A stretch of DNA of 64,000 nt from an uncultured Gammaproteobacteria bacterium (GCA_963714975.1 CAVQQD010000001.1:1-64000), one strand, 5' to 3'; shown: positions 4,776 through 25,868, numbered from the stretch's first letter. Notes: generated from the sequence alone by a model not told the origin. Numbers and translations: made by a program.

Positions 4776-4995
4776 TTGGATTCCAGCCCTGACGGAGTTC
4801 TTTGAGGGCCTGCCGACGCGTCCACCATGTACACTGATCTTTTAACTGCTTGATTATAAAAGAGTTGGTAGCGCTAACGGGGATCGAACCCGGATTTTCC
4901 GCCTTTTAGTAGTTTCTTTAAGTTACTGAAATCGCAATCGCACGAACCGACCAGTTCGCAGGAATCTCAGGTCGCTTGTACAAAATCTATACACG
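4776..4995 (-). repeat. attP-like repeat copy A (tRNA 3'-half core at 4866-4905)
   Basis: Reverse strand reads tttgtacaa..ctgagattcctgcga..tttcagtaactta..aaggcggaaaatccgggttcgatccccgttagcgctacca..aatcaagcagtta..tgtaca..ggctggaatccaa, shared with copies B and C. Confidence 0.85.
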
Positions 4996-5276
4996 GGTTG
5001 CGCCGAGGTTCATTAGTGTTTGGCGCGGGGCTTCGGCGCTACGCAAAAGTGACCCGGTAGAGCTTGGTTGAAGTGACCCGCGCTGGGAACGGAACTGAGG
5101 ACACGATCGGGATCGGAGGGCATCATCCACGCCGAAGGCGTGTTGGGGCGGGCTGTGATCGTGGTTCGGTTACCCTGCGGTTAGGTGGGGAGGAGATGGC
5201 GATATCATCCACGCGCAGGCGTGCGGGTTGGTTTCCATCATCCGCGCCTGAGGCGCGGCGTGACGAGGGACAGGCT

Positions 5277-5609
5277 TTAACGCGGTGACCGGATCCGTGC
5301 GAGCTTGTTGCGGAGATATTCGAAGTAGTCCGGGCTGACGCGCAACTCCAGCACTTCCTCAACCACCGGCAGGAAGTAAGCCAGCGAGCGAATCGTGCTC
5401 AAAGGTGGCGCATCGGCCGGCCGAATCAGGCGGCGCGTCGCCGCCAGCACCAACGCGTTTTCAATCACCTGCAACGAAAGGCCGCGTTGATACAGTTGCG
5501 CCGCCAGCAGCCGGTCCGCACGGCGGACTGTTCCCATCGTGCCCGGCGTCATCCGATACGCGTCCAGCACTTGACGAACATATGCTTCCTGACTCAGGCC
5601 GTTGTCCAC
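5277..5609 (-). CDS. Conserved passenger protein downstream of istB (replication-protein C-domain-like)
   Basis: 110 aa, 10 bp after istB stop; aligns by eye with the C-terminal half of 19509-20197. Confidence 0.7.
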   Translation of the reverse strand: MDNGLSQEAYVRQVLDAYRMTPGTMGTVRRADRLLAAQLYQRGLSLQVIENALVLAATRRLIRPADAPPLSTIRSLAYFLPVVEEVLELRVSPDYFEYLRNKLARIRSPR

Positions 5610-5619
5610 CCCGTTGTCC

Positions 5620-6345
5620 TCAGCCTTGCAACTCGCGCAGCGACGGACCTTTGATGTGCACGGTGTGGCAGTAATGCCGCAGACGGCTCAGCAACGCTTC
5701 CACCATGGGCCGACTGCCCAGAAAGTTCGGCCATTCGTCATAGACCAAGTTCGTAGTGATGATGGTGGAATGCTGGCGGTAGCGCTCTTCCATCAGCTTG
5801 AAGAAAATGTTTGACTGCTCGGGTTTCAGATTCAGATAGCCCAGCTCGTCGATCAGAAGGCAGTCCAGGCGCGCCAGGCGTTTGAGCAGTTGCCGCGTTG
5901 AGCGGTCGGCCAGTGAGGCATACATCTCGTCGAACAGATCCTGGGCCTTGATGAATTGGCACCGGTAGCCGTTCTCCAGCGCCTTCAGCAACAGACCGCA
6001 AGCCAGTCCTGTCTTGCCCCTTCCGGTTTCACCAACCAACACGATATTTTCTGTCTTGGTGATGAACTCCAACTCCGCAAACTCGCGGATCTGCTTCCGG
6101 TTCACACCTGGCTGGCGGGCGAAGGGGAACGTTTCCAGCGTCCATCGCTCGGGCAAATTGGCGCGCCGGATGCGCCACTCGAGTGCGCCCTCCTGCTTGG
6201 CCTGCCACTGCGCACGCACCAGGCGCGTGACGAAATCCGAGTAGCTGATGTCGTCCGTATCGGCGGCGCGCAACTGTTCGTCGTAGATTTCCAGAATGCG
6301 TCGCAGCTTAAGATTCTTCAGCAGTTGTTCCAGTTCTTCAGTCAT
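5620..6345 (-). CDS. istB: IS21 helper AAA+ ATPase IstB
   Basis: Walker A GETGRGKT, Walker B LLIDELGY, IITTN, ALLSRLRH. Confidence 0.93.
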   Translation of the reverse strand: MTEELEQLLKNLKLRRILEIYDEQLRAADTDDISYSDFVTRLVRAQWQAKQEGALEWRIRRANLPERWTLETFPFARQPGVNRKQIREFAELEFITKTENIVLVGETGRGKTGLACGLLLKALENGYRCQFIKAQDLFDEMYASLADRSTRQLLKRLARLDCLLIDELGYLNLKPEQSNIFFKLMEERYRQHSTIITTNLVYDEWPNFLGSRPMVEALLSRLRHYCHTVHIKGPSLRELQG

Positions 6346-7741
6346 CTTCCTGTGGCTCCCTGTCGAGCAGAAAATATTCGCGGGTCACGCGCCGCAGGAT
6401 CATCCGTTCCAACCGATCCAGGTCATAGAGACCATAACGGGCGGCATCGCGCACCGCTCCCACCAGTGGTTCTCGCGGATACTCGCGCACGAACCGCAGC
6501 AGTTGCCGCAGGGCAAGCGTCACCACCTTGCGGCTGCGTTGCTTCAAGGCCGCCACATATTCGGCCAGTTCCGGTGCGGCGCTGAGGATAGCGTTCTCTT
6601 CCGGATGCGGATCGGGCCGCGGCGCCCGCTGGCCCCGCGGCGGCCGGTGCTCCGCCAGCATTACCCGCTGGTGCTCAGCTTCCGCGACGCGGCGATGCAC
6701 CACCAGACGCCGGGCATCCAGTTGAATCTCGATCTTGTCCTTGGTCTCGCGCACTTCCACCCGCCGGCCGATCCAATCCACCGGTACCGAGTAGCGGTTG
6801 GTGTGCAGCACCACATACCCTTCGATATCCACCAGGCGCTGATGCAGCCGGTAGACTTCCGGAATCCACGCCGGCAGCGGCTTCAGATGCAGTCGCTCCA
6901 TGGCGAATAACTCGCGCGGCACTGCGCGGAGGTGTTTCTTGTAAGTCGCGTTGACCTTATCGCACCACTCTCGCGCTTGTCGGTTCAGATCCTCCCAACT
7001 GGCGAAGGTGCGCCCGGCGAAGAAGTTGTGTTCTACGAAATGAAAGGGCCGTTCTACGCGCCCCGAACGATTGGCATTACCAATAGCGTGCGCCACCCAC
7101 TCGAAGCCGAAGCGCTCGCCAAAAGCCGCCATCTCCGGCACTGGCACCATCTCGCGTCCGCTGCCGCGCAGCACCACCACATGCGTGTTATCGATCATCA
7201 CGCGGCGAGTGACACCGCCTATGTAGCGCAACGCGTCGGTGAGAAACACCTTGCAGTCGAAGCGCTGGAACGTCGGATAACACTGGAAAAACAGTATCCG
7301 CGAGTAACACAGCACGGCCGAGGCGGTCTGTACCTTGCGTTTCCTTCCAGCCAGTTCCACCTCGTGCGGAGAGGTATCATGCTGGAGTTCCTCACCCGGC
7401 GCAAAATCATACTGTCCCGCCACTACCGGGGGCTGGTATCCGATCCCGTGCCGCCGGCAGAAGGCTGTCAACGCGGCATACGACAACTCCACGCCGCCCG
7501 CCTGCAACTCCTCATGGACTCGCACGAGATTCCCCTTGCACTGGTCGAAAAGCTCCAGGATCTGTTGGCGGTACGGCTCGGCTTTCTCCGGCCGCCGCAG
7601 TTCCGGAACGGTCGTGGAATTCGAGCGCAGAACTTTCCGCACGGCCACGCGGGAGACCCCCAGCACTCGTGCAATCTCGCGTTTGGCCACTCCCTGCCTG
7701 TGCCGTTCCAGAATCGCGGTCCGTTGTGCTTGGCTCAACAT
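6338..7741 (-). CDS. istA: IS21-family DDE transposase IstA
   Basis: N-terminal HTH, PGEELQHD, IDNT, SGRVERPF, NRYSVP; overlaps istB start. Confidence 0.92.
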   Translation of the reverse strand: MLSQAQRTAILERHRQGVAKREIARVLGVSRVAVRKVLRSNSTTVPELRRPEKAEPYRQQILELFDQCKGNLVRVHEELQAGGVELSYAALTAFCRRHGIGYQPPVVAGQYDFAPGEELQHDTSPHEVELAGRKRKVQTASAVLCYSRILFFQCYPTFQRFDCKVFLTDALRYIGGVTRRVMIDNTHVVVLRGSGREMVPVPEMAAFGERFGFEWVAHAIGNANRSGRVERPFHFVEHNFFAGRTFASWEDLNRQAREWCDKVNATYKKHLRAVPRELFAMERLHLKPLPAWIPEVYRLHQRLVDIEGYVVLHTNRYSVPVDWIGRRVEVRETKDKIEIQLDARRLVVHRRVAEAEHQRVMLAEHRPPRGQRAPRPDPHPEENAILSAAPELAEYVAALKQRSRKVVTLALRQLLRFVREYPREPLVGAVRDAARYGLYDLDRLERMILRRVTREYFLLDREPQEDD

Positions 7742-8618
7742 GGGGTGTTTGCTCCGATGGAAGGTTTTCGCCGATGCGGCGGAGTTGTGTTTGTAGGTGC
7801 TCGATCTGATGCCGTGCGGCCTGGCATTGCCGGTGATCCAGTGCCAGCACCGCGGCACCGGCCAACTGCCGTTGCGCGCGATTCACGATGGCCGCGGCCA
7901 TATCCAGATGACGCAACAGTTCAGCCCCAGCCGCAGACGGGGCTTTCATCTGCGCCTGCCGCTGCGCCTTGAAGAACAGCTCAGGATCATCCAGAATGCG
8001 TTTGCGGATGGCGGGCGAGCCTTGGCGCCAGGCGGCGTAAAGTTGGCTGGCTTCCCGCGTATCGCAGTGGTGCTCGGCAAAGATAGCCGCCATCCGCTGG
8101 CAGTCCTCGAGGCTTTGCCGCGCTGTCGGCACCAGAAACCTCATGGCCACCTGCGCCGCGACTCGCCCCTCGCGCACCTGCTGTTGGATCGTTTCCGGCA
8201 GAACCTCCACCAGCGCCAGCCTCCGCGACACCCAGCTCACGCTGCGGTCGAAGCGCCGGGCTAACTCCTCCAATCCATAACCGAAGCGCTTCTCCAACTC
8301 CGCCAACAGCCAACCCATTTCCAACGCCGTCTCGTGTTCGGACATGCGCAACGAGTGGTCCAGCAGCACGGCCGCAGCCTCACTCATCGGCCACACCACT
8401 GCCTCTACGGTGTCCCGGCCTAACTGCTCCAGCGCCGCGATCCGCTTATAGCCGTCGATGACCACGTAATGCTCGGCCTGGCTTTCGGTGGCTACCACCA
8501 CAATGGGGGTTTGCTGTCCGGCCTCCGCCAGCGACGCCAACAAGCGCCGTTGCCGCGCTGGATGGCGCACCCGCAAGTGCTCCCAGCGCCGGTCGAGCTG
8601 ATGAAACTCCAGTTGCAT
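7512..8618 (-). CDS. ParB/Spo0J N-terminal-domain protein with HTH
   Basis: SLAEAGQQTPIVV, VIDGYKRIAAL, HTH LEELARRFDRSVSWVSRRL; tail overlaps istA by about 230 nt. Confidence 0.85.
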   Translation of the reverse strand: MQLEFHQLDRRWEHLRVRHPARQRRLLASLAEAGQQTPIVVVATESQAEHYVVIDGYKRIAALEQLGRDTVEAVVWPMSEAAAVLLDHSLRMSEHETALEMGWLLAELEKRFGYGLEELARRFDRSVSWVSRRLALVEVLPETIQQQVREGRVAAQVAMRFLVPTARQSLEDCQRMAAIFAEHHCDTREASQLYAAWRQGSPAIRKRILDDPELFFKAQRQAQMKAPSAAGAELLRHLDMAAAIVNRAQRQLAGAAVLALDHRQCQAARHQIEHLQTQLRRIGENLPSEQTPHVEPSTTDRDSGTAQAGSGQTRDCTSAGGLPRGRAESSALEFHDRSGTAAAGESRAVPPTDPGAFRPVQGESRASP

Positions 8619-8668
8619 CGACAGGCTGAATGTACGGTGACTTCTCGGTGGCAATCAATATGTCCGGA

Positions 8669-9161
8669 TTAAATGCGCGCCTGTTTCCAGCGCCGTTCGC
8701 GCTCCTGAACGCGTTCCAGCGCTCGCCGGCACGCTGCGCAACAGAAGCGCTGCAAGGGGCTTCGCCGCTGCTCTGCAAAGCTCTCATAGCACCCCGGCCG
8801 GTCGCACGTCTGGGCGAAAAAAATGTTCCTCAGTGATTACCCTCGCTGGCTCGCTAACTGCCTCTGGCTCTGCCGGTTTCCGGCTCTTGACCTGCTCCCG
8901 GTAGCGCCGGCTTTGCCCCTTGCGTTTCTCTCGGCCCGCCGTCGTTTCCCGGTATCGTTGCTGCGACTTCCACCGCGACCACCTCCGCGCCTGTTCCCGA
9001 CACTCGTCGCTGCAGTACCGCTGCCGCGCTCGCCGCGGATGAAACTTCTGTTCGCACCCTTTCAGCAGACACGTGCGTCGCCGCGGCCGCCGTGTCCGGC
9101 GTTTGGGTCGGCGCGCCACTTGATTTTGGCGATGACGTGTAGGACTCTCGGAAGGGCCCAT
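8669..9161 (-). CDS. Basic tandem Zn-finger-like protein, frameshifted at a T7 run
   Basis: CLLKGC..YCSDEC; after the shift at 8817-8823, CDRPGC..FCCAAC; stop at 8669. Confidence 0.6.
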
Positions 9162-9383
9162 GGGAGGTGATGACTCCCTGAAGCCCATGCCCTGGAGAGG
9201 GACTCTCTCCTCTCCGGGGCGCAGACCTCCGGCTCACAGCAAAACCAACACTCTAACGGAAAACGATGATTGCTGCTGCGGAAGGCCCCGTTCCTCTCAG
9301 GCGGTCAGGCGTCAGCGCTCACTACAGACTGTCTGGGTCACTCTTGGAAAGCACAGGTGGTCACTTCTCGAAAGCGCCGAAGC

Positions 9384-10464
9384 CCTCAGTATCCCGGGTC
9401 CAGATCGCACCAACTTTGGCATTTTCCTTGATTCCTCTCCAGATCGATGGGGACGGGTCCTCATGCAGAAACGGGAAAACCTACGAGCGCGCCAGCAGGC
9501 ACGCAAAGCCCGATCGTTGACCGAGTGGGATTTCCTGCTCGGCGTTCACGACGAAACTCGGCTGGGCGCGCTCCGCTTCCGAGATCCGGATTCCGGGCAA
9601 TTCATCGACAGTGACGATCAGTTAGCGGCACCGCCGATCACGTCGTTACGCGACCTTCAGGCCGCGAGCCTTGAGTTCGAAATCCACGCGGAGGATGAAG
9701 AGCATCCTGACTATCAACGATGGCTCGCGCAATTGTTTGCGCCAGGAACATCTTTGGGTGGCGCACGTCCCAAAGCATCCGTCAGAGACGAAGACGGCGC
9801 CCTCTGCCTGGCGAAGTTTCCCAGCCGACAGGATCGGCGTGATGTGGGCGCCTGGGAGTTCGTTGCCCATCGCCTGGCCGCCAGAGCAGGCATCAACGTT
9901 CCGCCAACCCGAGCATTGCGTGTGCCGGAGAGCGCGTATACGACATTCCTCGCGAAAAGATTTGATCGCACTCCCGAGAATCGACGATTGGCATTCGTAT
10001 CAGCGATGACGCTGACGCAACGGAGGGACGGAGAGCCCGGTGCAAGTTACCTCGAACTGATCGACCTGTTGCAATCGCAGGGCGCCAATACCCGCGAAGA
10101 CTCCAGAGAGCTCTTCCGCCGCGTCGTCTTCAGCATTCTGATTCACAATACTGACGATCACCTGCGCAATCATGGGTTCTTCATCGGCGAGCGAGGGATT
10201 ACCCTTTCTCCAGCGTTCGATCTGAATCCTTCGATTGAGCGGGACGAACTCTCACTGGCGATTAACGAAGTCGATTCCGCCTGCGATGTCTCAATCGCCC
10301 TGGAAGCTCACCGGGAGTACGGGATGTCGAAGACTGAAGCGGAAGAAATCGTCGCTCGGACAAGCCGGGTAGTCGCGGAGTGGAGGCACGAAGCAGGCAA
10401 GCTTCGCATCCCTAAAGCGGAGCAGAAGTTAATGGCGCCAGCATTCGAGACGGCGGCCCCATGA
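9384..10464 (+). pseudogene. hipA: HipA-domain kinase toxin, 5'-truncated and interrupted
   Basis: FLDSSPDRWGR, GTSLGGARPKA, AKFP, KRFDR, NTDDHLRNHGF, LSPAFD; only about 6 upstream codons survive at 5013-5030. Confidence 0.88.
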
Positions 10465-10615
10465 AATACCCCGCGAGAGCCACATTTTTCAGAACGTCGG
10501 GCCCTCGGCAATTCCGAAAACCGTTGGCCCAGTCCGTGTACATGCTTTGTACAAACAGGTCTGAGATTCCTGCGAAGACGGGTGATTCCTGCGATTTCGA
10601 TTTCAGTAACTTATA

Positions 10616-12066
10616 CCTGAATCCGGCGTGAAAACGATGGCAGGAATGTGCCTGTGGCCCTGTTGACAGGGGGGTCGAAGCACTTTTTAGATTCGCGCGT
10701 TAACCTAACTTTTGGTGAGGTTAACGTGGGAATACGCAGGTCGCCAAGAAATCTACGAATCGCCTGTGATCACAGGGGTCTGACGCACTTCGGTGGCGTG
10801 TATTTCTTTCATGAATTTCTACAGGTGCTGAAGATCCGCCGATTCCTGACCCAGAATCTCGACTACCCACGGCGCAATCAGCGATACAGTTTGGCGCAGA
10901 TGATTCTGGCTTTGGTCTACCCCTTAGTGCTGGGTCTGGATCGCCTGGAGACCGCGTCATTCCTACGTTCCAACGGCACGTTTCAATATTTGACCGGGCT
11001 GCAAAGCTTCCCCGATCCGCAGACGTTGCGCCGTTTCTTGCTGCAGGCTCCCGACTCATTCTTACGGCAGATGCACCGCGCAAATGATCGACTGCTGCAG
11101 AACTTCATTCAGCTACCCAGCCACCGATCTCGCCTGATCTTCGATCTCGACAGCACCGTGGTCACTGTCTTTGGGCGTCAGCAGAAGGCAGAGGTCGGCT
11201 ACAATCCCCGTTATCGGGGCAAGCGTTCCTACAATCCGCTATTGTGCCTGGAGGCCAACTCCTCCTATCTGTGGGATACCGAACTGCGGCCAGGCAATGC
11301 TGGCACATGGGATGGCAGCGTTGAAGTGTTGGCGTCTTGTTTCGTCAACATACCATCGGATATTCGGGAGCTGCGCGTGCGGGCGGATGCCGGGTTTGGT
11401 TTCAATCCGGTCCTGGAGATTCTCGAGGCCAGAGCCGCGCGGTATGCGGTCGTGGCCCGCCTGACCCAAGCATTCAAGCGATTGCTTCCGGGCTTACGAT
11501 ATGAATCCGTCAACAAGGAGTGGGAGATGGCCGCGTTCGATCACCGATCCCACGGTTGGCCGCACGCCCGTCAATTCGTGGTGGCACGAAGATTCATTCC
11601 CGACGATGAAGTTGAAACCACGCTCTTCACCATGGGTCGCTACATGTATCGCGCCTGGGTAACCAATATGGATCTGACGCCGGCCGGCATCTGGCATTTT
11701 TATGACGGGCGTGCCGCTATGGAGCCAAGGATCTGTGAACTACGCGAAGATTATGCATTGCGGAAGATCCCGACCTCCTCGTTTGCGGCCAACGCGCTGT
11801 ACCTGGAAATCATTCGGCTTGCCTACAACTTGGTCACTGCGTTTCAGCGGAATTGCCTGGAGGAATCCTGGCAGAGCTTGACGCTTCAAAAGCTACGCTA
11901 CAAACTGTTCTTGCTCCCAGGTGAACTGACTCGCCCCCAGAACCGCCCAGTTCTTCGCCTCCGAGAGTCGCCGCTGCTACAGAATCTGACTAATGACATC
12001 CTGCGCAAGGTTCACCGACTGAAACCGATCCAGATCTAGAAACGCAATCTTCACGCCGGATTCAGG
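10616..12066 (+). mobile_element. IS1380-family element, complete
   Basis: 17-bp IR cctgaatccggcgtgaa/ttcacgccggattcagg; 5-bp target duplication TTATA at 10611-10615 and 12067-12071. Confidence 0.95.
10726..12039 (+). CDS. IS1380-family transposase
   Basis: LTHFGG, FDLDSTV, GYNP..GKRSYNPL, LRPGN, VRADAGF, FYDGRAAME. Confidence 0.93.
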   Translation: MGIRRSPRNLRIACDHRGLTHFGGVYFFHEFLQVLKIRRFLTQNLDYPRRNQRYSLAQMILALVYPLVLGLDRLETASFLRSNGTFQYLTGLQSFPDPQTLRRFLLQAPDSFLRQMHRANDRLLQNFIQLPSHRSRLIFDLDSTVVTVFGRQQKAEVGYNPRYRGKRSYNPLLCLEANSSYLWDTELRPGNAGTWDGSVEVLASCFVNIPSDIRELRVRADAGFGFNPVLEILEARAARYAVVARLTQAFKRLLPGLRYESVNKEWEMAAFDHRSHGWPHARQFVVARRFIPDDEVETTLFTMGRYMYRAWVTNMDLTPAGIWHFYDGRAAMEPRICELREDYALRKIPTSSFAANALYLEIIRLAYNLVTAFQRNCLEESWQSLTLQKLRYKLFLLPGELTRPQNRPVLRLRESPLLQNLTNDILRKVHRLKPIQI

Positions 12067-12397
12067 TTATAGAGAACACGAGAAGGGGGAAATCCGGGTT
12101 CGATCCCCGTTAGCGCTACCAACTCCCGTGGAATCAAAAACTTAGAATTTGGCCGTACCAAGGCTGGAATCCAAAAGGATTCGGACAGTGGGGAGCCGGG
12201 GATTGCGCCTTTGATGTTAGCCGCAAAGGAAAATTACTGCCAAGAATTCAGCAAATCAGCATATACTATTGTGGCCGAACGATCCGCGTCGTTGACCGAT
12301 TCACGCCGGTGTGTGTGGTCACTCTCGCGGGCCTTCAGTAACCGCAGTCGCGAACCGAGCGTACGCCTGCCAATTCAGTGCCCAGTGCCGCTGAGCC

Positions 12398-12868
12398 TCA
12401 ACCGTACGTAAGGTCGGTGCTCTGGCCGACCTCAATGATATAACCGTCAGGGTCGCGAATATAGCAGCGCGTTTCGCCATATTTCGGAATCGGCTCGGTG
12501 AGGAACTCGGCCCCTCGACTTTTCCATAATTTGTAGCAAGCCTGAATGTCCGCTACCCTGATATTCATAAAGCTGTTGATCTTATTCGGGTCGGGGACGC
12601 TTAGCGTTACCGTCGGCTTGTTCACGGTAGGCCCACCTCCGACGTTGACAAGCAGCCACGTATTCGCGATCTGAACGTAGGCAGGCGCGCCTTCGCTGTC
12701 GCCTCTGCTCAGGATGCGGCCATCAAAGACCTTTTCGTAGAAGCGAGCTGATCGGTCGATGTCGGCTACGGTAAGGAAATGTGCAACGCTGAACCCCTCC
12801 CGCGGGGGCATCTCATAGCTTTTTTGTTCAATTTGTACGCTGTTCATTGACGACTCCATGTTTTTCAT
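12398..12868 (-). CDS. VOC/glyoxalase family protein
   Basis: LTVADIDRSARFYEKVF, CYIRDPDGYIIEV. Confidence 0.9.
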   Translation of the reverse strand: MKNMESSMNSVQIEQKSYEMPPREGFSVAHFLTVADIDRSARFYEKVFDGRILSRGDSEGAPAYVQIANTWLLVNVGGGPTVNKPTVTLSVPDPNKINSFMNIRVADIQACYKLWKSRGAEFLTEPIPKYGETRCYIRDPDGYIIEVGQSTDLTYG

Positions 12869-12908
12869 TCCGATTCTCCTTGTCCCCACTCGCGGGCGAG
12901 CGTTCCCA

Positions 12909-13763
12909 TTAGCCGCCCGGGAATCCAAACATCAACCACGACTGGTTGGCTGCCCAGTGGGGGTAGAGCCTGGTCATATGGTCGAACAACTCTTTGTCAG
13001 ACGCCGTGCTCTGCCGCAGTCGGTCAAAGTCGAGTAGATATTGTTTCGTGTCCTCGATCGCCGACGGCGAGTCGGGCGCACCAGGCTTCTTGTGACCGGC
13101 GACAACTATCGCCGGCTTCAGCGCTGCCAGCCGGTCCAGCGCCGCGACCCAGTTCTTGCGGCTCTCGGGCGTGGTGTCGCCGACATACATGTGGCACTGG
13201 TTGTAGACCACGTCGCCAGCGACGACCAGGCCGATCGATGGAACGTATAGAGACGTCGTATCGGCGCTATCGGTGTGGCCCTGCTCGAGAATGCGTAATT
13301 CCTGGCCCTCCAGAGTGAACCTGTCGTGCTCATAGGCCTGGGGTGCAACAAATTTAGTAGCCAATTGCCCGGGAAACAATCGGCGCGCAAGCCGCTCTAC
13401 CGGGGGAGTGAAAGACGCCTGCATCGCGCTCAAGGTCTTGGACGTTGCTATCGCCCGAGCGCCAGGGAAACGGTCGAGCAGAATGCTCAGACCGTAGAAG
13501 TGGTCAAAATGCCCGTGCGTTATATAGATGGTTTCGAGGTTGCGGTTGTGCAGGGCAACCCAGTCAGCGAGCGTCTCCGCCTCAGCCACGGTCGTCATTG
13601 CATCGACCAGCACAGCGTCGTATTCGCCGAAGATTAGGGTCAACGTCATCGGGTCGAAGCCAAACGCTTCGCCGAAGGGCTTTGGCGGCTCGCCTACCAT
13701 CACCTTGCCCGGCGCTGTAAAAACGTTAACGCCAAGCGTGTTCGACGTGACGGGGACTGTCAT
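12909..13763 (-). CDS. MBL-fold metallo-hydrolase
   Basis: THGHFDH, GHT, AGDVVYN, VAGH. Confidence 0.92.
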   Translation of the reverse strand: MTVPVTSNTLGVNVFTAPGKVMVGEPPKPFGEAFGFDPMTLTLIFGEYDAVLVDAMTTVAEAETLADWVALHNRNLETIYITHGHFDHFYGLSILLDRFPGARAIATSKTLSAMQASFTPPVERLARRLFPGQLATKFVAPQAYEHDRFTLEGQELRILEQGHTDSADTTSLYVPSIGLVVAGDVVYNQCHMYVGDTTPESRKNWVAALDRLAALKPAIVVAGHKKPGAPDSPSAIEDTKQYLLDFDRLRQSTASDKELFDHMTRLYPHWAANQSWLMFGFPGG

Positions 13764-14448
13764 GGGTCTCTCCTTAGGCTCATGGGTGTCTTAGGCCCGA
13801 ACTCTTAACGAAGCGGATTTGCGTTTCGCGCCCCCCAGCCTAGCCAAACGATGCAATCGCCGGGCCCACACGAAAACGCTGAAATTACGGGAGAAGTCGG
13901 ACGATGTCGAAGACAGGCGGCGGGGGCGGAGTCGAATGGCGGACACGAGACCGGAGACCGGCGGTTGATATCGCGGCGACTTGGTAGGTCAGCCTCAAGC
14001 GCGGCGGGCAAGTCGAAATCCGGTTCCGGCCCTGGGTGGATGCCGTTTGGTCGTCCGCTACCAGAACTATCACGTGAATGGTAGCCCCGCTACTCGGGGC
14101 GGGCAGAGAGCTTACAATGGATGCGTACTTGCGTGCGATGCTGACTCCGTTTGTCACGACGCGCGTCGGCCATGTGTTGGAGAAAGTCGGACTGCAATCC
14201 TGAAAAACTCGTCTTCTTTGCGCTCGGTGAATTCTCGCCCGTAGGATGGCTTCGTAAGCCACCTGGAATCACGGCGTCAACGGATTTCTAAAGGTGAACG
14301 CATGACCGAATCTGCCAAGTCAAAGATTGCCCTTCGGCCGGCGAAATCAGCCGGCGCGGCTTCATTGCAGTCGATCCTCCACACGGAGGAATACAGCGAC
14401 GCTGTTCTCGCCCGCCGAATAGCGCGAACGAGTCGCCGATAGCGCGAA

Positions 14449-14629
14449 ATGCGGGCCGTACCAACCTTGGATGCTGGCAACACCTTTGGCAGTCCTCTTT
14501 TCCTTTGGTGCATTATCGCAGACCCAGCTTGCGACTGTATCCGGCACTATCACCGACCCCAGTGGAGCAGTTGTCCCTGGCGTTAGCGTAGCGATTGCCA
14601 GCCAAGGCACCGGATTGAAACGGAGCGTT
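14449..14629 (+). pseudogene. TonB-dependent receptor fragment 1 (signal peptide and carboxypeptidase-regulatory-like domain)
   Basis: ATVSGTITDPSGAVVPGVSVAI. Confidence 0.75.
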
Positions 14630-14654
14630 GAGATTGAATTCCACCACGCGACCT

Positions 14655-16340
14655 TCAGAACGTAAACCGGCCGGTCAGTTGAAGCTGGCGGCCGGTGCCG
14701 ACCGTGGTCAGGATTTGGCCTGCGTTAGCGGCAAAATGCCCCGCCGCATCCTTGAAGACGGCATCCCCATTACCCCCGAAGGAAAGTGGGCTTTGTGTAT
14801 TACTGGGAACACCAAGATTCGGATGGTTGAACAGATTATAGGCTTCTATTCCAACTGCAATCTCCCGGTGTTCAGCGATCCTAAAATCCTTGTGCAGTGC
14901 CGGGTCAAATTGCGCGAACGCCGGCCCCCGCAGGATATTTCGTCCGGCATTGCCAAACTGACCGGCCGGCGGCACCGCAAAAGCACTTGGATTAAACCAG
15001 CATGACGAAGTACCAACTCTGGCCCCGTTCGGACAGACACCCGCGTAGGGATTGCCAACAAGGTTCGGGCGTTCCGCAGTAGTGAGCGATTGCAGATCGG
15101 CATTGTCGAAGGCTAGTACCGGGGTAAATGGGGAACCGCTATGAACGCTGGCTACAGCCGAGACCTGCCAGCCGCCCAGGAGACGTCCGTGTCCGGGCAG
15201 CGCGTAAACGACATTTGCCACGAAATTATGCCGAATGTCGAAATCTGACGGGCCTCGGCTTCCCTTGCGATCGAAAATGTTCTGCGATCCGGGGGAATCG
15301 TTCACGGATTCCACGGAAAAATCCACCGAAGCATCATCCACGGAATGGGCTAGCGTATACGACGCCTGCCAGAAAAGGTTATGTGCATAGCGTTTCGAAA
15401 CAGACACCTGAAAGGAGTTATAGAAGGATTGCGCGTCCGTCAACATCCGTTAGCAGAGGTGACTGCCAGGTTCGGATTGTAGCGATGGCCTAACGCCGGC
15501 TCAAAGGGGTTCTCCTCGGCTTGGCGGGTGAGGTGATTGCCGCGCGTGCCAAAGTATCCCGCGCTGAGGATCATGCCCTGCGCGAGTTCCCGTTCCACGT
15601 TGAGGTTATACTCCAGCGCATATGGGAATTTCGGGCGGTATGTTGCCGCAAAAGCGTCGAGCGGCTGGGTCAGGACAGCATTTTGTGGGTTTAGAAATTG
15701 AGGGAAAACGAATTCCTCCAGACCGAAAAAAGGCGGTAGCAGCCCGTTGAGACCGAACAGGATCGCCGGGAGTTGGTCGCGATAGATGCCGAATCCGCTC
15801 CGCACCACAGTTTTACCGTCGCCCGAAGACATTCCATGCAAAGCCTGCCTGGGGCGACAGAAGATCCAGCGGTGTCCCGGCAAATAGCTTGCCGACGGTT
15901 GGGACGGAATCCGTCGCTGGGTTTGGAAAAGCTGAGAGACGTCCGAATGCCTCGGTCGGATTAGAGTAGAAATCGTAGCGCAACCCGATATTTACGGTTA
16001 AGCGGCTGTTCACGCGTATGAAGTCCTGGGCAAAACCAGACGCGATTGTTTCACGGTATCCGCGGTCAGAATCGGCGTTGGAGGGATTGACCCCCACGTA
16101 CGACAGAGGCAAACCCTCGAGGAAAAATTCGAAGGCAGTGTTCATGCTAGATGCCGGCAAACCGAAGGGAGTCAAATCCTGGAAGCCGTACAGTCCGTTG
16201 ACAGCGAAATCCAGCGTCCCGTTGTTTTGGAGCCTTCTAAACTCCACGCCGAATTTCAAGGTGTGACGGCCAATCGTATGCGACAGTTGGTCTTGAAACT
16301 GATAAGCCGTCGAAAAATCGGCTATAGGAAATACGGGCTG
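14655..16340 (-). pseudogene. TonB-dependent receptor fragment 2 (C-terminal barrel, inverted, frameshifted)
   Basis: HTLKFGVEFRR, FAQDFIRVNSRLTVNIGLRYD, GNAGRNILRGP, ends GRQLQLTGRFTF. Confidence 0.85.
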
Positions 16341-16347
16341 TTGCCTA

Positions 16348-16913
16348 GCAACTAGCACCGGACTACTTCCCGAACAGAGCCTGGGGGACTCCCCCTCGAC
16401 AACCGCGATCTTTTTAGTGCGGTTACGCTGCAGCCGGGAGTCGCGCCTAACCCCAGCAGTGGTCCTTCGTTGCTTTCGAGCGGCAAGTCCGCGCAAGTGG
16501 CAATCAACGGCTCACGTCCGCTATTCGCCCGCGGGTGCTTCCGGATTTTTTCTCGGGCTGAATGAACTTGCCGAGGTCCGCGTTCTCACTCAAACGTTCA
16601 ACGCGGAGTACGAGGGGCATGGCGGAGCAGTTATCGAGATGGTCACCAAGTCAGGCAGTAACCAATTTCACGGATCCTTGTGGGAGTTGCATCGGGATGC
16701 GTCGATCGACGCTAAGAACTATTTTGATTTGGGCAAAAGTCCGATTCCGCAATTCGTTCGGAACCAGTTCGGCACCGGAATTGGAGGGCCGCTCAAGCGC
16801 GATCATACGTTCTTCTTTGTAAACTATGAGGGGCTTCGCGAAGTACAGGCGACCACGGCGATCGCCACGGTACCCAACGCCCTCGCCCATCTAGGACTGC
16901 TGCCATCCTCTAG
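16348..16913 (+). pseudogene. TonB-dependent receptor fragment 3 (plug and early barrel), cut by IS
   Basis: PLDNRDLF..LQPGV, EVRVLTQTFNAEY, VTKSGSNQFHGS, RNQFG..GGPLKRD. Confidence 0.8.
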
Positions 16914-17077
16914 TCTAGAGTTTTGCACTTTTTGAAGGCTCGCGTCCCCTGGCCGTAGCTTGTTCCGCTTGGCTCCGCCCTTGGAAACCGCTGCCGTTTG
17001 CTCCAAACATTTTTTGACGTTTTGTCAGTTTTCTCTTGCATCCAAGGCTGATTTATGATATCTTTCATAGTTAATAA

Positions 17078-17422
17078 ATGAAAGATAAGGTTGCTCAACT
17101 TACCGCTTCACGCAAGCAACTCATTCAGAAGATGCCTGACCCTTCCGCCATCTTGCCGGGTTCCTTATTGAGCCGTATGGTGCGCTGTAATAAGCCCGGT
17201 TGCCGTTTTTGCGAGAAGAGCAAGGGCAAAGGCCACGGACCGATCTGGATTCTCTCCGTCAGTCTCGGCAATCGCCAGGTACGCCAAGTCCCCATCCCCA
17301 GCGAGCTGAAAGAAGAGGTGGAGGAAAGCCTGCGCGCGTTCGCTCAGACGCAAGCACTACTGAAGCAGATCGCGCAAGTGAACTTCGAGCTTTTGAAGGA
17401 ACGTAAGCGCCAGCGATCGTAA
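17078..17422 (+). CDS. DUF6788-like small transposon accessory protein
   Basis: GSL..RCNKPGCRFC..GHGP; directly upstream of the transposase. Confidence 0.75.
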   Translation: MKDKVAQLTASRKQLIQKMPDPSAILPGSLLSRMVRCNKPGCRFCEKSKGKGHGPIWILSVSLGNRQVRQVPIPSELKEEVEESLRAFAQTQALLKQIAQVNFELLKERKRQRS

Positions 17423-17481
17423 GGTCTTTTTTTTGCGCTCTTTATCTTTCATTTATTAGAAATGAAAGAAAAGGACGCTCG

Positions 17482-18486
17482 ATGCCCGATCTCTTGGTCC
17501 GTTCCTTCGCTCCACTCCTGCTCGCTTTTCAATCGTGCTTCACTCAGCCGAGCTTCCAGTCCTTCTGGGCCGTGACCTGCGCCTGGATCCTCTGCTCGGG
17601 CCGCCGTTCCCTCACTCGCATCATTCAATCCGGGCAACTGACCGAGTTCAAACACTACTGCTCGTTCCATCGCTTCTTCAGCCAGGCCCGTTGGAGCCTT
17701 GACGATCTGGGCCACTGCGTCTTCCAACTCCTGTTACCTTTTTGCGCAGAGGTTCTGGTCGCTGCGGTCGACGATACCTTGGCCCGCAAATCCGGGCGCC
17801 ACATCTGGGGCGCCGGCATGCACCACGATCCCTTGCGTTCTACCCAGAAACGCCCCTTCTTCGCCTTCGGCCACAACTTCGTGGTCTTCTCTTTGCAAGT
17901 GGCCTTGCCCTTCGCTCCTGACAAATACTGGGCTTTCCCCATCCTCGTTCGCATGTACCGCAAGCGCCAGACCAACCAGCGCGCACCCGGCAAAGGGGGA
18001 AAACTGGAGCGCAAACAAACCGGCCAGGCCACCGCCAAGCAATATCGCACCCGTCCCGAACTGGCCCTGGAGATGATTCAGACCGTGGCCAGTTGGATTC
18101 CCCAGCGCATGCTTCGCGTCCTCGGAGATAGCGAGTATGCCGGCCAATCCATTAGCCGCCACCTTCCCCCCAACGCGAAGTTGATCAGCCGCATGAACAT
18201 GAAGGCCGCTCTCTATGAACCCGCCGGGAAGATTGCCAAACGGGGGCGACGCCGCAAGAAAGGCAATCGCTTGCCGAGTCCTCTACAGATGGCGCAAGGC
18301 AAAAAAGCGAAATGGATCAAGACCACCGTCGCGCTCTATGGAAAGCAGGTCAAGCTCTGGTACCAAACCATCGATGCCCTGTGGTACCCCAGCGCCGGCC
18401 AACAACTCCTCCGCATCGTCGTGGTGCGCGACCCCAGCGGCCGCCGCCGTGATGATTGCTTCTTCTCACTGGATCTCGCCCTAACA
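17482..18486 (+). pseudogene. IS701-like transposase, 5' part
   Basis: VDDTLARKSGRHIWG, GHNFV, GDSEY; interrupted after FFSLDLALT. Confidence 0.85.
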
Positions 18487-19344
18487 CCTGAATCCGGCGT
18501 GAAAACGATGGCAGGAATGTGCCTGTGGCCCTGTTGACAGGGGGTCGAAGCACTTTTTAGATTCGCGCGTTAACCTAACTTTGGGTGAGGTTAACGTGGG
18601 AATACGCAGGTCGCCAAGAAATCTACGAATCGCCTGTGATCACAGGGGTCTGACGCACTTCGGTGGCGTGTATTTCTTTCATGAATTTCTACAGGTGCTG
18701 AAGATCCGCCGATTCCTGACCCAGAATCTCGACTACCCACGGCGCAATCAGCGATACAGTTTGGCGCAGATGATTCTGGCTTTGGTCTACCCCTTAGTGC
18801 TGGGTCTGGATCGCCTGGAGACCGCGTCATTCCTACGTTCCAACGGCACGTTTCAATATTTGACCGGGCTGCAAAGCTTCCCCGATCCGCAGACGTTGCG
18901 CCGTTTCTTGCTGCAGGCTCCCGACTCATTCTTACGGCAGATGCACCGCGCAAATGATCGACTGCTGCAGAACTTCATTCAGCTACCCAGCCACCGATCT
19001 CGCCTGATCTTCGATCTCGACAGCACCGTGGTCACTGTCTTTGGGCGTCAGCAGAAGGCAGAGGTCGGCTACAATCCCCGTTATCGGGGCAAGCGTTCCT
19101 ACAATCCGCTATTGTGCCTGGAGGCCAACTCCTCCTATCTGTGGGATACCGAACTGCGGCCAGGCAATGCTGGCACATGGGATGGCAGCGTTGAAGTGTT
19201 AGCGTCTTGTTTCGTCAACATACCATCGGATATTCGGGAGCTGCGCGTGCGGGCGGATGCCGGGTTTGGTTTCAATCCGGTCCTGGAGATTCTCGAGGCC
19301 AGAGCCGCGCGGTATGCGGTCGTGGCCCGCCTGACCCAAGCATT
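18487..19344 (+). mobile_element. Truncated second copy of the IS1380 element
   Basis: Near-identical to the first about 860 bp of the copy starting at 10616; cut by the IS21 end. Confidence 0.93.
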
Positions 19345-19508
19345 TGCGGATTCCGACGATGTGAATAACCGATTCCGGGCTGATGTGAATAATTTCTGAG
19401 CGTCGCGGCGCTGACAGTTTTGATGATGCCGAGATTATTCACATGAGTCAAGCGGCGGGGCCGCCGGAGGCGGCCGGCTTCTTGATGGTGGGGTGTATCA
19501 AACAGCAT

Positions 19509-20197
19509 TATTTCGTAACCCTTATTTCGTCTGATTTGCGCGGGGACTCGAAACCGCGCCATTGCCGTTCGGCGTCCCGGACCCGGCGTTCGACATGCAC
19601 CCAGTAGCCTCGGCGAGATGTCCTGCTTGACCTCATCGAAGAGTGCGGCGAAGTAGCGCAAGCTGGTGATGGGTGTCCCGCGGCCGTTGTTGATCAGTGC
19701 GACGTACTTCCGAAGCGAGCCCAGCAGAATCGCGTGTTCGAGCATCCGCGATGGCCACGCCGGCAGTGGAAAAGCTCGGTCGCGATTTTCTCGTCCGCGG
19801 CAGTGAAAGCGCTCCGGACACAGCGCCGTTCCAGGAAGGCGCGCTTTAGCTGGTTGATATAGGTGGCGAGGTTTTCCGCTTGCTGGCCAGTTGGCGCCCG
19901 CTCGTATGGCCAGTAGCGATCCGCAATCTGAATGGCTCCGTCCGGCGTTGGCTGACCTATTTCAGACTGAAATAGGTCTCGCAGATTTGCGCGGATCTCG
20001 GCTTCCGTCTTGCCCAAGACGCGAGCGATTTCGTTGGGTTCGATCCGGATTGCGCCAAGGCTGCGGTCGGCGTTCAGACAGATCCACATGAACAGCCTGA
20101 ACGCGCCGTCGGAAAGCAGACTGAGCGCTTGAGCGACTTCCTTTCCGGCGGCGAACCAACCGGTTGGCTGTTTGAGTCGTAGCTGTGACCCGGTCAT
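19509..20197 (-). CDS. IS21 passenger: winged-helix N-terminus plus conserved C-domain (frameshifted)
   Basis: ATGA-coupled to istB; LSDGAFRLFMWICLNAD..EIARVLGKT; LEHAILLG..ITSLRYF..DEV; 3' end approximate. Confidence 0.7.
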
Positions 20198-20949
20198 TGC
20201 GGTTGCTCCTCGCGGGGTTTTCGGCCGCGCTTCTTGCGGATCGATTCGCCGTTGAGTTCGATGCGGTAGGCATTGTGAACCAGGCGGTCGAGAATGCTGT
20301 CGGCGACGGTGGGATCGCCGATCTGTTCGTGCCAGTGCGCGATCGGCATCTGCGAAGTCAGGATCATGGAGCGGCGCTGATAGCGGTCATCGCAGATTTC
20401 CAGAAAGTCGCGGCGCTCGTTGTCTTTCAGCGGAGCCATGGCGAAGTCGTCGAGCACGAGCACATCGATGCGCGAGAGTTTCAGCAGCACCCGGCCGATG
20501 CTGCCGTCCACATGGGCGACCGCGAGATCGCGGAACAGTTCGGTCGTTCTTTTGTGCAGGACGGAGAAGCCGTCACGGCAGGCTTTCTGCGCCAGGGCGC
20601 AGCCCAGCCAGGTTTTCCCGATGCCGGTGGGCCCGATCAGCAGAACGTTCTGGTGCTGGCGAACCCATTCGCTGTTGGCCAGCGTCCGCATGAGTTTGCG
20701 GTCGAGGCCGCGCGGGTGCTGGTAATCGATGTCTTCGATGACGCCGCGCTCCTTCAGACGGGCGGATTGAAGACGGCGCGCCAGCGCCCGGTTCTCTTTC
20801 CATAGCCACTGCTGATCGACGAGCATGCCAAAGCGCTCTTCGAAGCCGAGCTGGCTCGTGTCGGTGGTTTCCAGTTGAGCGCGGAAGGCGTCGGCCATTC
20901 CGTGCAGTTTCATGGTGTGCAGTTTTTCAATCGTCGGTTGATTCAACAT
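20194..20949 (-). CDS. istB: IS21 helper ATPase IstB
   Basis: GPTGIGKT, LVLDDF, ILTSQ, ADSILDRLVHNAY. Confidence 0.95.
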   Translation of the reverse strand: MLNQPTIEKLHTMKLHGMADAFRAQLETTDTSQLGFEERFGMLVDQQWLWKENRALARRLQSARLKERGVIEDIDYQHPRGLDRKLMRTLANSEWVRQHQNVLLIGPTGIGKTWLGCALAQKACRDGFSVLHKRTTELFRDLAVAHVDGSIGRVLLKLSRIDVLVLDDFAMAPLKDNERRDFLEICDDRYQRRSMILTSQMPIAHWHEQIGDPTVADSILDRLVHNAYRIELNGESIRKKRGRKPREEQPQ

Positions 20950-20973
20950 GTGTTCTCTCCTTGGGGTTGTGGT

Positions 20974-22547
20974 TTACTGCAGCAGAGTGGTCGGCGGATC
21001 GTAGTAATGAGCGCCGCGAACGTTTTCATGCTGGGGGCCGGGCCTTTCCGGCTCCAGCGCGAGGGTGGTCTGCCGATCGAGCGAGCGTTTCAGAATGGAC
21101 TTCAGGCTTTGATAGGAGCAGGCCTGCGAGTGCGAGTGCGCGCTGGCTGGCGGCTTCGAGCCGCGCGATTGGAGTAGGTCTTGCCCAGGCGCATGATTCC
21201 CAGGCAGGCGCGATAGCCCATCTCGGGATGCGGCTTGCTTTCGAGGATCGTGCGGACCACTTGCGCGGTGGCCTCGCCCACGGTTTCGGCCCAGTGAATC
21301 AGCCGCGAAGGCGTCCACTCCAGATGCGCCTGATGGCTCTTGGGCATGTGCTCTTGAACCGTGGTGTGCCGGTAAGCCGCGGAGCTGCGCAGATGCGAGG
21401 CGACGCGCTTGCCGAATGGAAGATCTCGACGGTGCGTGGCGGTGAAGCGCGCTTCCAGTTGCTGGCCGGCAAGCTGGTAGGGAACGCTGTAGTAATGACG
21501 GTCGATCTCGACGTGATAATCGATGTTGGCGCGGACCGTTTTCCAGTCGGCGATCACATAGCGTTCGGCGGGCAGCGGCTGCAGAGCGGGCCGGTCCACT
21601 GCGGCGAACAGCGAGGCGCGCGTGCCTTCCCGTTTGCGGAAGGGCCGGTGGTTGAGCCGTTCGAGCAGCTGGCCGATGGCCTCGATTCAGTTCCGCCAGC
21701 GAGAAGAACTTGTGGTGCCGCAGCGCCGCCAATATCCAGCGCTCCACGAGCAGAACGGCATTTTCGACTTTGGCTTTGTCTCTCGGTTTATAGGGCCGCG
21801 CCGGCATGACGGCGATGCCGTAATGCTGCGGCCATCTCGTGATAGGTGCGATTGAGATCCGGCTCATAGCGGCAGGCGCGGTCGACGCCGGTCCGCGGGT
21901 TATCCGGCACGATCAGCTTGGTGGTGCCGTGGAAGAACTCGAAGGCGGCAATGTGGCAGTCGATCCAGTTCGCCAGATCCTGGCTCCAGGCGGCTTGCGC
22001 GAAGGTGTAGGTGCTGGCGCCGAGCACGGCGACGAAGAGCGAAGCCGGCGTGACATCGCCGGTCTGGCGATCGTGGATCGGCACCGTGGGGCCGGCCCAG
22101 TCGACGAACATCTTCTCGCCGGGCTTTGTGTCCTGCCGGAGCACGACGTTGTGATTCCGGTTCCACCGCTGATACAGCTCGCAGAAACGGCTGTAGCCGT
22201 AGCCGTCCGGTTGCGTTTCGCGATACTCTTCCCAGAGCAACTGCAGGGTCACATGTTTGTGACCTTTGAGCTGGCGATGGATTTCGGCGAAGTCCAGGCC
22301 CGGCCGCGAGTTGCTGAGGCGGGCATACGCGGCCGCGTCGGAAACAGCAGCTCATTGAGCCGCCGGTCGTCGCAATCGTCCGGCAACGGCCAAGTCAGGC
22401 CGGCGGCGGCGGCTCTTTCCAGATACCGATGAACGGTCGCCTGACCGATCGAGCAACTGCGGGCGATCTGGTCCTGTCCCAGGCCCAGACCGAACCGCAG
22501 ACGTAGAACTTCCTTGATTTTTCGCATAGACAACCTTTCTGGGGCAC
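20974..22547 (-). CDS. istA: IS21 transposase IstA (several frameshifts)
   Basis: [41 protein letters not shown] in successive frames. Confidence 0.9.
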
Positions 22548-22773
22548 TCAGTTCCCTCCACTTGCCAGTGGAGACAACCGGCGCCCCCTGTTGTCCAGCG
22601 CCGCCGCTCAGATGAAGTTCTTTTCAGAAAATCATTCCGGGGATGTGAATAACGATTCCGGGCCGGGCCGAATTTTTCATCCACTTCGGCCCCGGAATCG
22701 ATTATTCACATCGCCCGGAATCCGTTATTCACATCGCTCCGGAATGATTATTCACATGCCCCGGAATATAGCA

Positions 22774-25649: not shown

Positions 25650-25868
25650 CGTACAGGATTTGTACAAAAGGCCTGAGATTCCTGCGAACACGGTGGTTCC
25701 TGCGATCGCGGTTTCAGTAACTTACACAAAACACTAGAAGGCGGAAAATCCGGGTTCGATCCCTGTTAGCGCTACCAACTATTTTAAAATCAACTACTTG
25801 CAAAAATGCCTGTACATGGTAGGCCCCGCGGACACCGCGATGAAGATGGTGCCAAGGCTGGAATCCAA
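25650..25868 (+). repeat. attP-like repeat copy C (core at 25738-25777)
   Basis: Same motif order as copies A and B, including aaggcggaaaatccgggttcgatccctgttagcgctacca and aatcaactacttg. Confidence 0.85.

Follow-up and report, generated by a model that had tools for sequence, protein, structure and literature searches.

The IS21 family of insertion sequences (IS) is the structural model for the control of a DDE transposase by a dedicated AAA+ ATPase and has been described as a two-protein system: canonical elements such as IS21 and IS5376 carry istA and istB. Two other kinds of system offer points of comparison, namely the replisome organizers of phages and Firmicutes (DnaD, Bacillus subtilis DnaB, SPP1 G38P, lambda O with P) and the TniQ/TnsD proteins that work with TnsC/TniB in Tn7 and Tn5053. 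Here, we analyze a stretch of 64,000 nucleotides (nt) from an uncultured Gammaproteobacteria bacterium (GCA_963714975.1, CAVQQD010000001.1:1-64000; hereafter the window), which holds two divergent IS21-family elements in which istB is followed by a third gene. We report that the two third genes, a short form in element 1 (P3) and a long form in element 2 (P3L), belong to one large family encoded by IS21-family transposons. By analogy with the systems above, we propose, with a probability of roughly 0.45, that P3 and P3L may be IS-encoded DNA-binding adaptors or regulators of IstB, a DnaC-like AAA+ ATPase.

The window elements resemble canonical IS21 in their IstA and IstB proteins, which pass the family models, in the order istA then istB with overlapping ends, in multiple repeated end sites and, among their relatives, in short target duplications; both have inverted repeats and several repeated subterminal sites at both ends. 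They differ from it by the conserved third gene after istB. The lineage of element 1 departs further, adding a ParB-like gene that abuts istA and a zinc-ribbon gene with a conserved run of T, and relatives of this element reach 3.8-5.8 kb. In a full-text literature search, neither this kind of third gene nor a ParB-like gene was reported for any IS21 element; named elements of this kind may exist in ISfinder or TnCentral. One passage of the literature gives multi-ORF (open reading frame) structures as typical of the IS21 and IS66 families (PMC3281130), and a passage of another source mentions IS21 solely as cargo of a Tn3-family transposon (PMC7371123).

P3 (5277-5609, minus strand) encodes 110 amino acids (aa) from a GTG start 10 nt past the istB stop. 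P3L (19511-20197, minus strand) is broken into three frame pieces and begins in an ATGA overlap with the istB stop, a coupling found in the long-form lineage. A preliminary description of the window had placed a third gene after istB in both elements, which holds, and had read that of element 2 as one frame, which does not. It had also proposed that the two genes are homologous, and profile comparison bears this out: hhalign of the P3L family against the P3 family gives a probability of 97.9% (E 4.6e-13, 99 columns), pairing P3 residues 7-106 with residues 110-208 of the long form, its C-terminal half. In addition, BLASTP of the window P3 against an intact long relative, P0121, gives E 5e-10, and when the window's genome is searched with a profile of long-form proteins only, 5292-5591 comes up at E 1e-10. 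Searching element 2 DNA directly with P3 (tblastn) gave no significant match (best E 1.7) because of the frame breaks, and intact relatives were therefore compared instead. The joint P3/P3L alignment has 17 invariant columns. The motifs on which the homology had been proposed fall on invariant columns (Y113, D135, A139, L142, E153, A155, L158, I176 and L179), and further motif columns, Y181, F182, E188, V189 and Y197, are invariant across both families; the invariant columns of the shared domain by which we assigned P3/P3L family membership include R162 and were found. The statement that the IstA/IstB pairs and the ends of the two elements are very different proved equally accurate, with IstB at 29% identity and unrelated termini (CTTCGGCGCT... 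vs TGCGGATTCCGA...).

The family is large. Searches returned 4836 relatives of P3 at E <= 0.01 among 4860 candidate proteins, nearly all of the 120 matches listed being 110 aa long, and 493 relatives of the element 2 third gene among 560 candidates. An exhaustive profile search found 1876 clusters (50% identity) at E <= 1e-3, with 1003 of them at E <= 1e-10.

The third gene is carried along at every transposition. A search of public genomes located relatives of element 1 on 223 stretches, nearly all from Acidobacteriota assemblies, of which we retained the best 80. For six sets, each made up of copies from a single genome, identity covers 3764, ~4280, ~4310, 4758, 5309 and ~5790 bp and stops abruptly, while the flanks of the copies in each set are unrelated to each other. 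The block common to the copies opens with CTTCGGCGCT...AGTGACCC and the inverted copy of this sequence closes it ~200 bp past P3; the inverted repeats thus enclose the third gene, which is located between istB and the repeat on the right, and the mobile units vary mainly upstream of the ParB-like gene. Of 40 end pairs that a motif scan proposed in the relatives, 13 are flanked by direct repeats of 5-9 bp, the other 27 including mispaired motifs and contig ends. The same arrangement is seen in other lineages: a long-form element of 3385 bp, of which one genome has 11 or more copies, encodes proteins of 518 (IstA), 248 (IstB) and 238 aa (P3L) and also has the istB/P3L ATGA overlap, and in a third lineage a 3417-bp element flanked by duplications of 6-7 bp has a zinc-ribbon gene ahead of istA, istB and a short P3.

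Linkage to istB is nearly complete in both forms. For P3, istB lies directly upstream in 78 of 80 genome loci, the exceptions being one locus with a disrupted istB (L065) and one with only 21 nt upstream (L070). For P3L, it does so in 78/80 metagenome loci; L129 has no upstream room, and L123 has 853 nt upstream without an istB match. Five whole Acidobacteriota genomes hold 5-17 third-gene copies each, and 49 of their 53 family matches follow a same-strand istB at gaps of 2-232 nt (the four copies apart from istB are one full-domain match, in a 151-aa frame, and three fragments). The neighborhood survey that the preliminary description had called for thus gives the linkage it anticipated. The gene is under purifying selection: the ratio of nonsynonymous to synonymous substitution rates (dN/dS) of P3 is 0.205 (78 pairs among 13 sequences) vs 0.073 for istB (36 pairs). 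Its place inside the inverted repeats, its copying with the element, this selection and its adjacency to istB support the earlier suggestion of a conserved accessory factor of IS21-type elements.

These data also bear on whether the third gene is cargo unrelated to transposition, serving addiction, anti-defence or a benefit to the host. Cargo at the left ends of the family is indeed variable, the mobile units (3764-5792 bp) differing mainly in what precedes the ParB-like gene, and in the five genomes roughly one istB in two has no third gene. However, the position and orientation of the gene after istB are fixed across lineages whose IstB proteins are 29% identical, the long form overlaps istB by ATGA, just 4 of 53 copies in the five genomes stand apart from istB, and the PADLOC defence library gave no match for P3 or P3L. 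We consider cargo very improbable, and favor a function with IstB.

In a tree of 35 IstB proteins, the elements with the third gene fall into at least four distinct clades, and clades without it are placed among them. Four changes between presence and absence account for this distribution, a number as low as which was reached in 0 of 200 shuffles, and the interleaving requires either several gains or several losses. A sample of 400 other genomes from the window's phylum gave no match to either third-gene form, and elements 1 and 2 are each present in one copy in their own genome. With these single copies and the absence from the phylum sample, against 5-17 copies in each Acidobacteriota genome searched, the two elements look like rare horizontal arrivals from elsewhere, unless the contig is misassigned. 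Searches with two long forms by tblastn, P0121 against 72,556 plasmids and P0262 against 50,697 phage records, found no match.

In the predicted structures, P3L combines an N-terminal winged helix, probably of HTH_36 type, with a five-helix bundle, and P3 consists of the bundle alone. The AlphaFold2 model of the long form, from 57 sequences, has a predicted local distance difference test score (pLDDT) of 91.5 and a predicted template modeling score (pTM) of 0.67, with helices at 19-77 and strands at 81-91 forming the winged helix and the bundle spanning 104-211; the model of the window P3 is a five-helix bundle with pLDDT 90.1 and pTM 0.82. Profiles support the N-terminal assignment. Pfam HTH_36 (PF13730) matches 38 of the 57 members (best E 5.5e-10), the PHROG 'DnaD-like helicase loader' matches 15 (best E 2.3e-5) and the PHROG 'replication initiation protein' 11 (best E 2.2e-6), all within about residues 1-120. 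The winged-helix N-terminus that the preliminary description had proposed for the longer protein is thereby supported. Two short motifs of the long form are very strongly conserved (P0121 residues 8-20 and 93-98). The first, LK..GWFAAG.E, belongs to the N-terminal tail, where the model is less confident; the second, DR.WPY, follows the wing. Both may be candidate contact sites for a partner.

Structural comparison extends the likeness to viral initiators. A Foldseek search of viral models with P3L returned four matches at E <= 0.001, the best a 'Replication initiator protein' (E 6.3e-6, 232 columns), and among the top 50, 'Replication initiation and membrane attachment' and replisome organizer are recurrent names. 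Language-model neighbors outside the family's own clusters are DnaT, DnaD_N and DnaB_2 clusters at 0.79-0.81, which we take as a lead only; for the C-terminal part, ESM Atlas returned unnamed clusters alone (0.82-0.83). Against the Protein Data Bank (PDB), Foldseek found winged-helix regulators alone for the long model, none at E <= 0.001, and nothing under E 0.59 for the short model. For P3, P3L and the zinc-ribbon protein alike, NCBIfam gave no match of note, and PDB sequence searches with both family profiles gave best E values of 0.58 and 0.81, to unrelated proteins. RepB_primase_C (PF22448) recurs below its cut-off, at 15.3-17 bits against 26.1 over ~28 residues, in 12 of the 18 members with a full Pfam list and in 14 of 57 in the wider Pfam scan, where 25 of 49 families are shown.

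P3L is thus comparable with DnaD, B. subtilis DnaB, SPP1 G38P and lambda O with P in joining a winged helix to a small helical C-terminal domain, in its HTH_36 and PHROG N-terminal matches, in viral structural neighbors so named, and in being encoded beside an ATPase of the IstB/DnaC clade. It differs from them in that its C-terminal bundle has no DnaB_2 sequence match and in the setting of its gene, which belongs to a transposon, follows the gene of the ATPase and has neither a helicase nor an origin in its vicinity; the short P3 differs further by having no winged helix. The likeness to initiators noted in the preliminary description holds as a resemblance, in the N-terminal and viral matches; for the C-terminal bundle, which alone is common to the third genes of both elements, no family match passed its threshold.

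Taken strictly, the proposal of the preliminary description would make P3L a DnaD- or lambda-O-like initiator, bringing the replicative helicase or the primosome of the host to the product of strand transfer for replication or gap repair. Phage Mu requires primosome assembly following strand transfer, and the PHROG, viral Foldseek and language-model results are of the kind expected, as is the placement of IstB in the DnaC/DnaA AAA+ clade, with DnaA, DnaC and DnaI models matching IstB weakly. By sequence, however, P3L does not fall into DnaB_2 or DnaD: neither DnaB_2 nor Phage_rep_O is among the 15 Pfam families listed at E <= 1 for the 18 members. Short P3 also has no DNA-binding domain, and no finding ties the protein to a host helicase. 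An initiator role is, in our judgment, quite unlikely.

We favor instead an adaptor or regulator of IstB. DnaD- and G38P-type organizers bring ATPases of the DnaC/DnaI clade to DNA, and since IstB belongs to this clade and organizers deliver such ATPases, control of IstB loading is the simplest model. P3 and P3L would act with IstB as a DnaD- or G38P-type organizer acts with its loader ATPase, or as TniQ acts with TnsC. The conserved bundle would contact the transposition machinery, IstB being the likeliest partner, and a DNA-binding module would place or restrain IstB on DNA, which would set where or when IstA gets recruited. This module may be exchangeable: a winged helix in P3L, and a separate zinc-ribbon or ParB-like protein in the short-form elements. 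Prediction of an IstB-P3 complex scored 0.00 (mark 0.32), a result that leaves binding neither favored nor disfavored. The likeness to TniQ/TnsD with TnsC/TniB, a third, DNA-binding protein beside a DDE transposase and an AAA+ regulator that might guide the ATPase onto DNA, is a functional analogy only, and unlike in those systems no conserved target site was seen for the P3 elements. A narrower version, in which IstB and P3L would be the transposon-borne counterpart of a phage or Firmicute loader-organizer pair, with P3L nucleating or steering the IstB oligomer on DNA and the short-form lineages dividing this work among the bundle protein and the zinc-ribbon and ParB-like DNA binders that they encode separately, strikes us as doubtful.

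Several results weigh against an organizer-like partner of IstB. At the level of structure, TM-scores to viral initiators are only ~0.3; such values would be expected if the orientation of the two domains differs, and the likeness stays weak. The best structural neighbors of the bundle are AAA+ lid domains and not DnaD, with all bundle scores under the level that helical bundles reach by chance, and the shared bundle has no match above threshold in Pfam, NCBIfam or PDB sequences. A search of the five Acidobacteriota genomes with the PF07261 DnaB_2 profile matched none of their 53 P3-family genes at E <= 10; its three matches (E 0.6-3) all lie away from P3 genes. At the level of the element, 55 of 102 istB genes with their 3' end present in these genomes have no third gene and 47 have one; the gene is not a core requirement, since IS21 elements transpose without it. 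Three loci with a short P3 (L077, L080 and L084) lack the zinc-ribbon gene that might supply DNA binding. No common target sequence is evident in the insertion flanks of multi-copy relatives, so a sequence-specific target selector is not indicated. Because there is no conserved target sequence and about half of the IS21 elements in the same genomes do without the gene, we regard the gene as modulating transposition rather than enabling it.

A repressor is another candidate, for which the repeated subterminal sites of both element types offer possible binding places. On this account, P3L would be a repressor of transcription or of the transpososome, its winged helix sitting on the terminal sites or a promoter and its bundle dimerizing, with short P3 as an anti-repressor or dominant partner. 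Many insertion sequences encode small regulators. However, what is conserved across lineages is the bundle and not the DNA-binding domain, and short forms have no winged helix; an autoregulator would not usually be encoded at the end of the operon in translational coupling with istB, as this gene is; and the winged-helix sequence matches are of the HTH_36 and replication-initiator type and not to repressor families. We find a repressor unlikely and prefer an adaptor or regulator of IstB.

What is observed already extends the two-protein description of IS21: large and evidently active lineages, with up to 11 or more identical copies in a genome, carry a conserved third protein, and one lineage has five genes. 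The third gene can serve as an annotation marker, as current family libraries leave its product a 'hypothetical protein'. If the third protein acts on IstB, it would provide a simple test case of how such an ATPase is steered and would bear on the long-noted kinship of IstB with the DnaC/DnaI helicase loaders. If the loader-organizer reading were true, elements of Acidobacteriota would link helicase loading to ATPase-guided transposition in an IS21 machine of three to five proteins.

Element 1 (5031..9382, minus strand) is a complete IS21-family transposon of 4352 bp. The inverted-repeat pattern CTTCGGCGCT-N7-AGTGACCC occurs at 5031-5055 on the plus strand and at 9358-9382 on the minus strand, with 0.03 matches expected by chance, and because termini that bound the multi-copy relatives also fall at these two places we set the element's limits there. 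It thus reaches 9382 and includes ParB-like and zinc-ribbon genes, beyond the extent pictured in the preliminary description. No target duplication was found at its ends in the window. On the minus strand, istA, istB and P3 follow each other in this order, the ends of istA and istB overlapping. istA lies in an ORF at 6338-7858, with a likely ATG at 7741 (6338-7741, minus strand, 467 aa); its product passes NCBIfam NF033546 transpos_IS21 (184.2 bits, cut-off 160) and matches Pfam rve and Mu-transpos_C_2. istB (5620-6345, minus strand) encodes 241 aa, matches Pfam IstB_IS21 at E 6.6e-60 and passes NF038214 IS21_help_AAA (225 bits, cut-off 200). Altogether, element 1 looks intact.

Immediately upstream of istA lies the ParB/Spo0J-like gene (7512-8654, minus strand), whose open frame extends ~230 nt into istA in a different frame. 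It matches TIGR00180 parB_part at E 2.3e-15 with 56.8 bits, just below the cut-off of 58.45, and more weakly Pfam ParB_N (20.2 bits, cut-off 26.3) and HTH_ParB (20.7 bits, cut-off 22.6). In 55 of the 59 relatives with upstream room, a ParB-like match longer than 200 aa stops no more than 30 nt from istA; in the other four the match is shifted, split or partial.

The Cys-rich zinc-ribbon gene (8669-9188, minus strand) has its first motif in an ORF at 8784-9188 and its second in another frame, at 8669-8806; seven consecutive T (8817-8823) separate these two Cys motifs. Six or more T stand at this place in 18 of the 19 distinct sequences, and 24 of 29 cases show an offset of +1 between the frames of the Cys motifs (relatives L012-L087). 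Together, the T run and the offset suggest programmed transcriptional or translational slippage, as judged from sequence. The gene is found in 44 of 50 relatives with room for it, and BLASTP shows homology (E 7e-5) with its Cys-rich counterpart in the third lineage; it thus occupies the left end in two short-form lineages, and none was seen in the long-form elements examined, a complementary gene content in line with the proposed exchangeable DNA-binding module.

A HipA-type kinase ORF (9160-10464, plus strand; HipA_C E 1e-46) runs across the left end of element 1, with its first ~220 nt inside the element. The insertion of element 1 probably removed the 5' part of this gene.

Element 2 (19345..22768, minus strand) is a decayed IS21-family element of 3424 bp. 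Similarity to four independent metagenome relatives (L092, L096, L101 and L102) spans exactly 22768 to 19345; the right terminus, TGCGGATTCCGA, is at 19345, and 23-nt repeated units are present at both ends. Its istB (20194-20949, minus strand) is intact, with 251 aa and a Pfam IstB_IS21 match at E 2.6e-74. istA (20998-22539, minus strand) is a pseudogene in five pieces over three frames, as traced by tblastn with the intact IstA of L092, and the five fragments have 81-92% identity to the intact relative's IstA. The long-form profile likewise matches the third gene in pieces, at 19766-20194, 19608-19742 and 19511-19612, and intact P3L relatives are 223-229 aa long and up to 92% identical. As P3L and istA are both broken and istB alone is intact, element 2 is a dead copy.

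Its right boundary is marked by a truncated IS1380-like copy (18486-19344, plus strand; Pfam DDE_Tnp_1_4). This copy has 99.65% identity to positions 10615-11474 of an intact IS1380-like element (10615-12067, 463-aa transposase), the identity ending at 19344. The missing half is not found beyond element 2, which implies a rearrangement after the truncation.

The intact IS1380-like element splits one of three copies of a ~150-nt repeat, located at 4862-5004, 25651-25780 and, in two parts, 10526-10613 and 12067-12125. The repeats end in a tRNA-like 3' part, with a T-arm-like GGTTCGATCC and a terminal ...ACCA; ARAGORN tRNA and Rfam scans of the window found no RNA gene. They are possibly repeated attachment sites of integrated islands, and the right flank of element 1 may itself derive from a tRNA integration site. 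Between them lie fragments of a gene for a TonB-dependent outer-membrane barrel (OMP_b-brl_4; 14655-16496 and 17482-18537), adjoined by a DDE_5 transposase gene, and the first 25 kb of the window have the look of a mobile-element graveyard.

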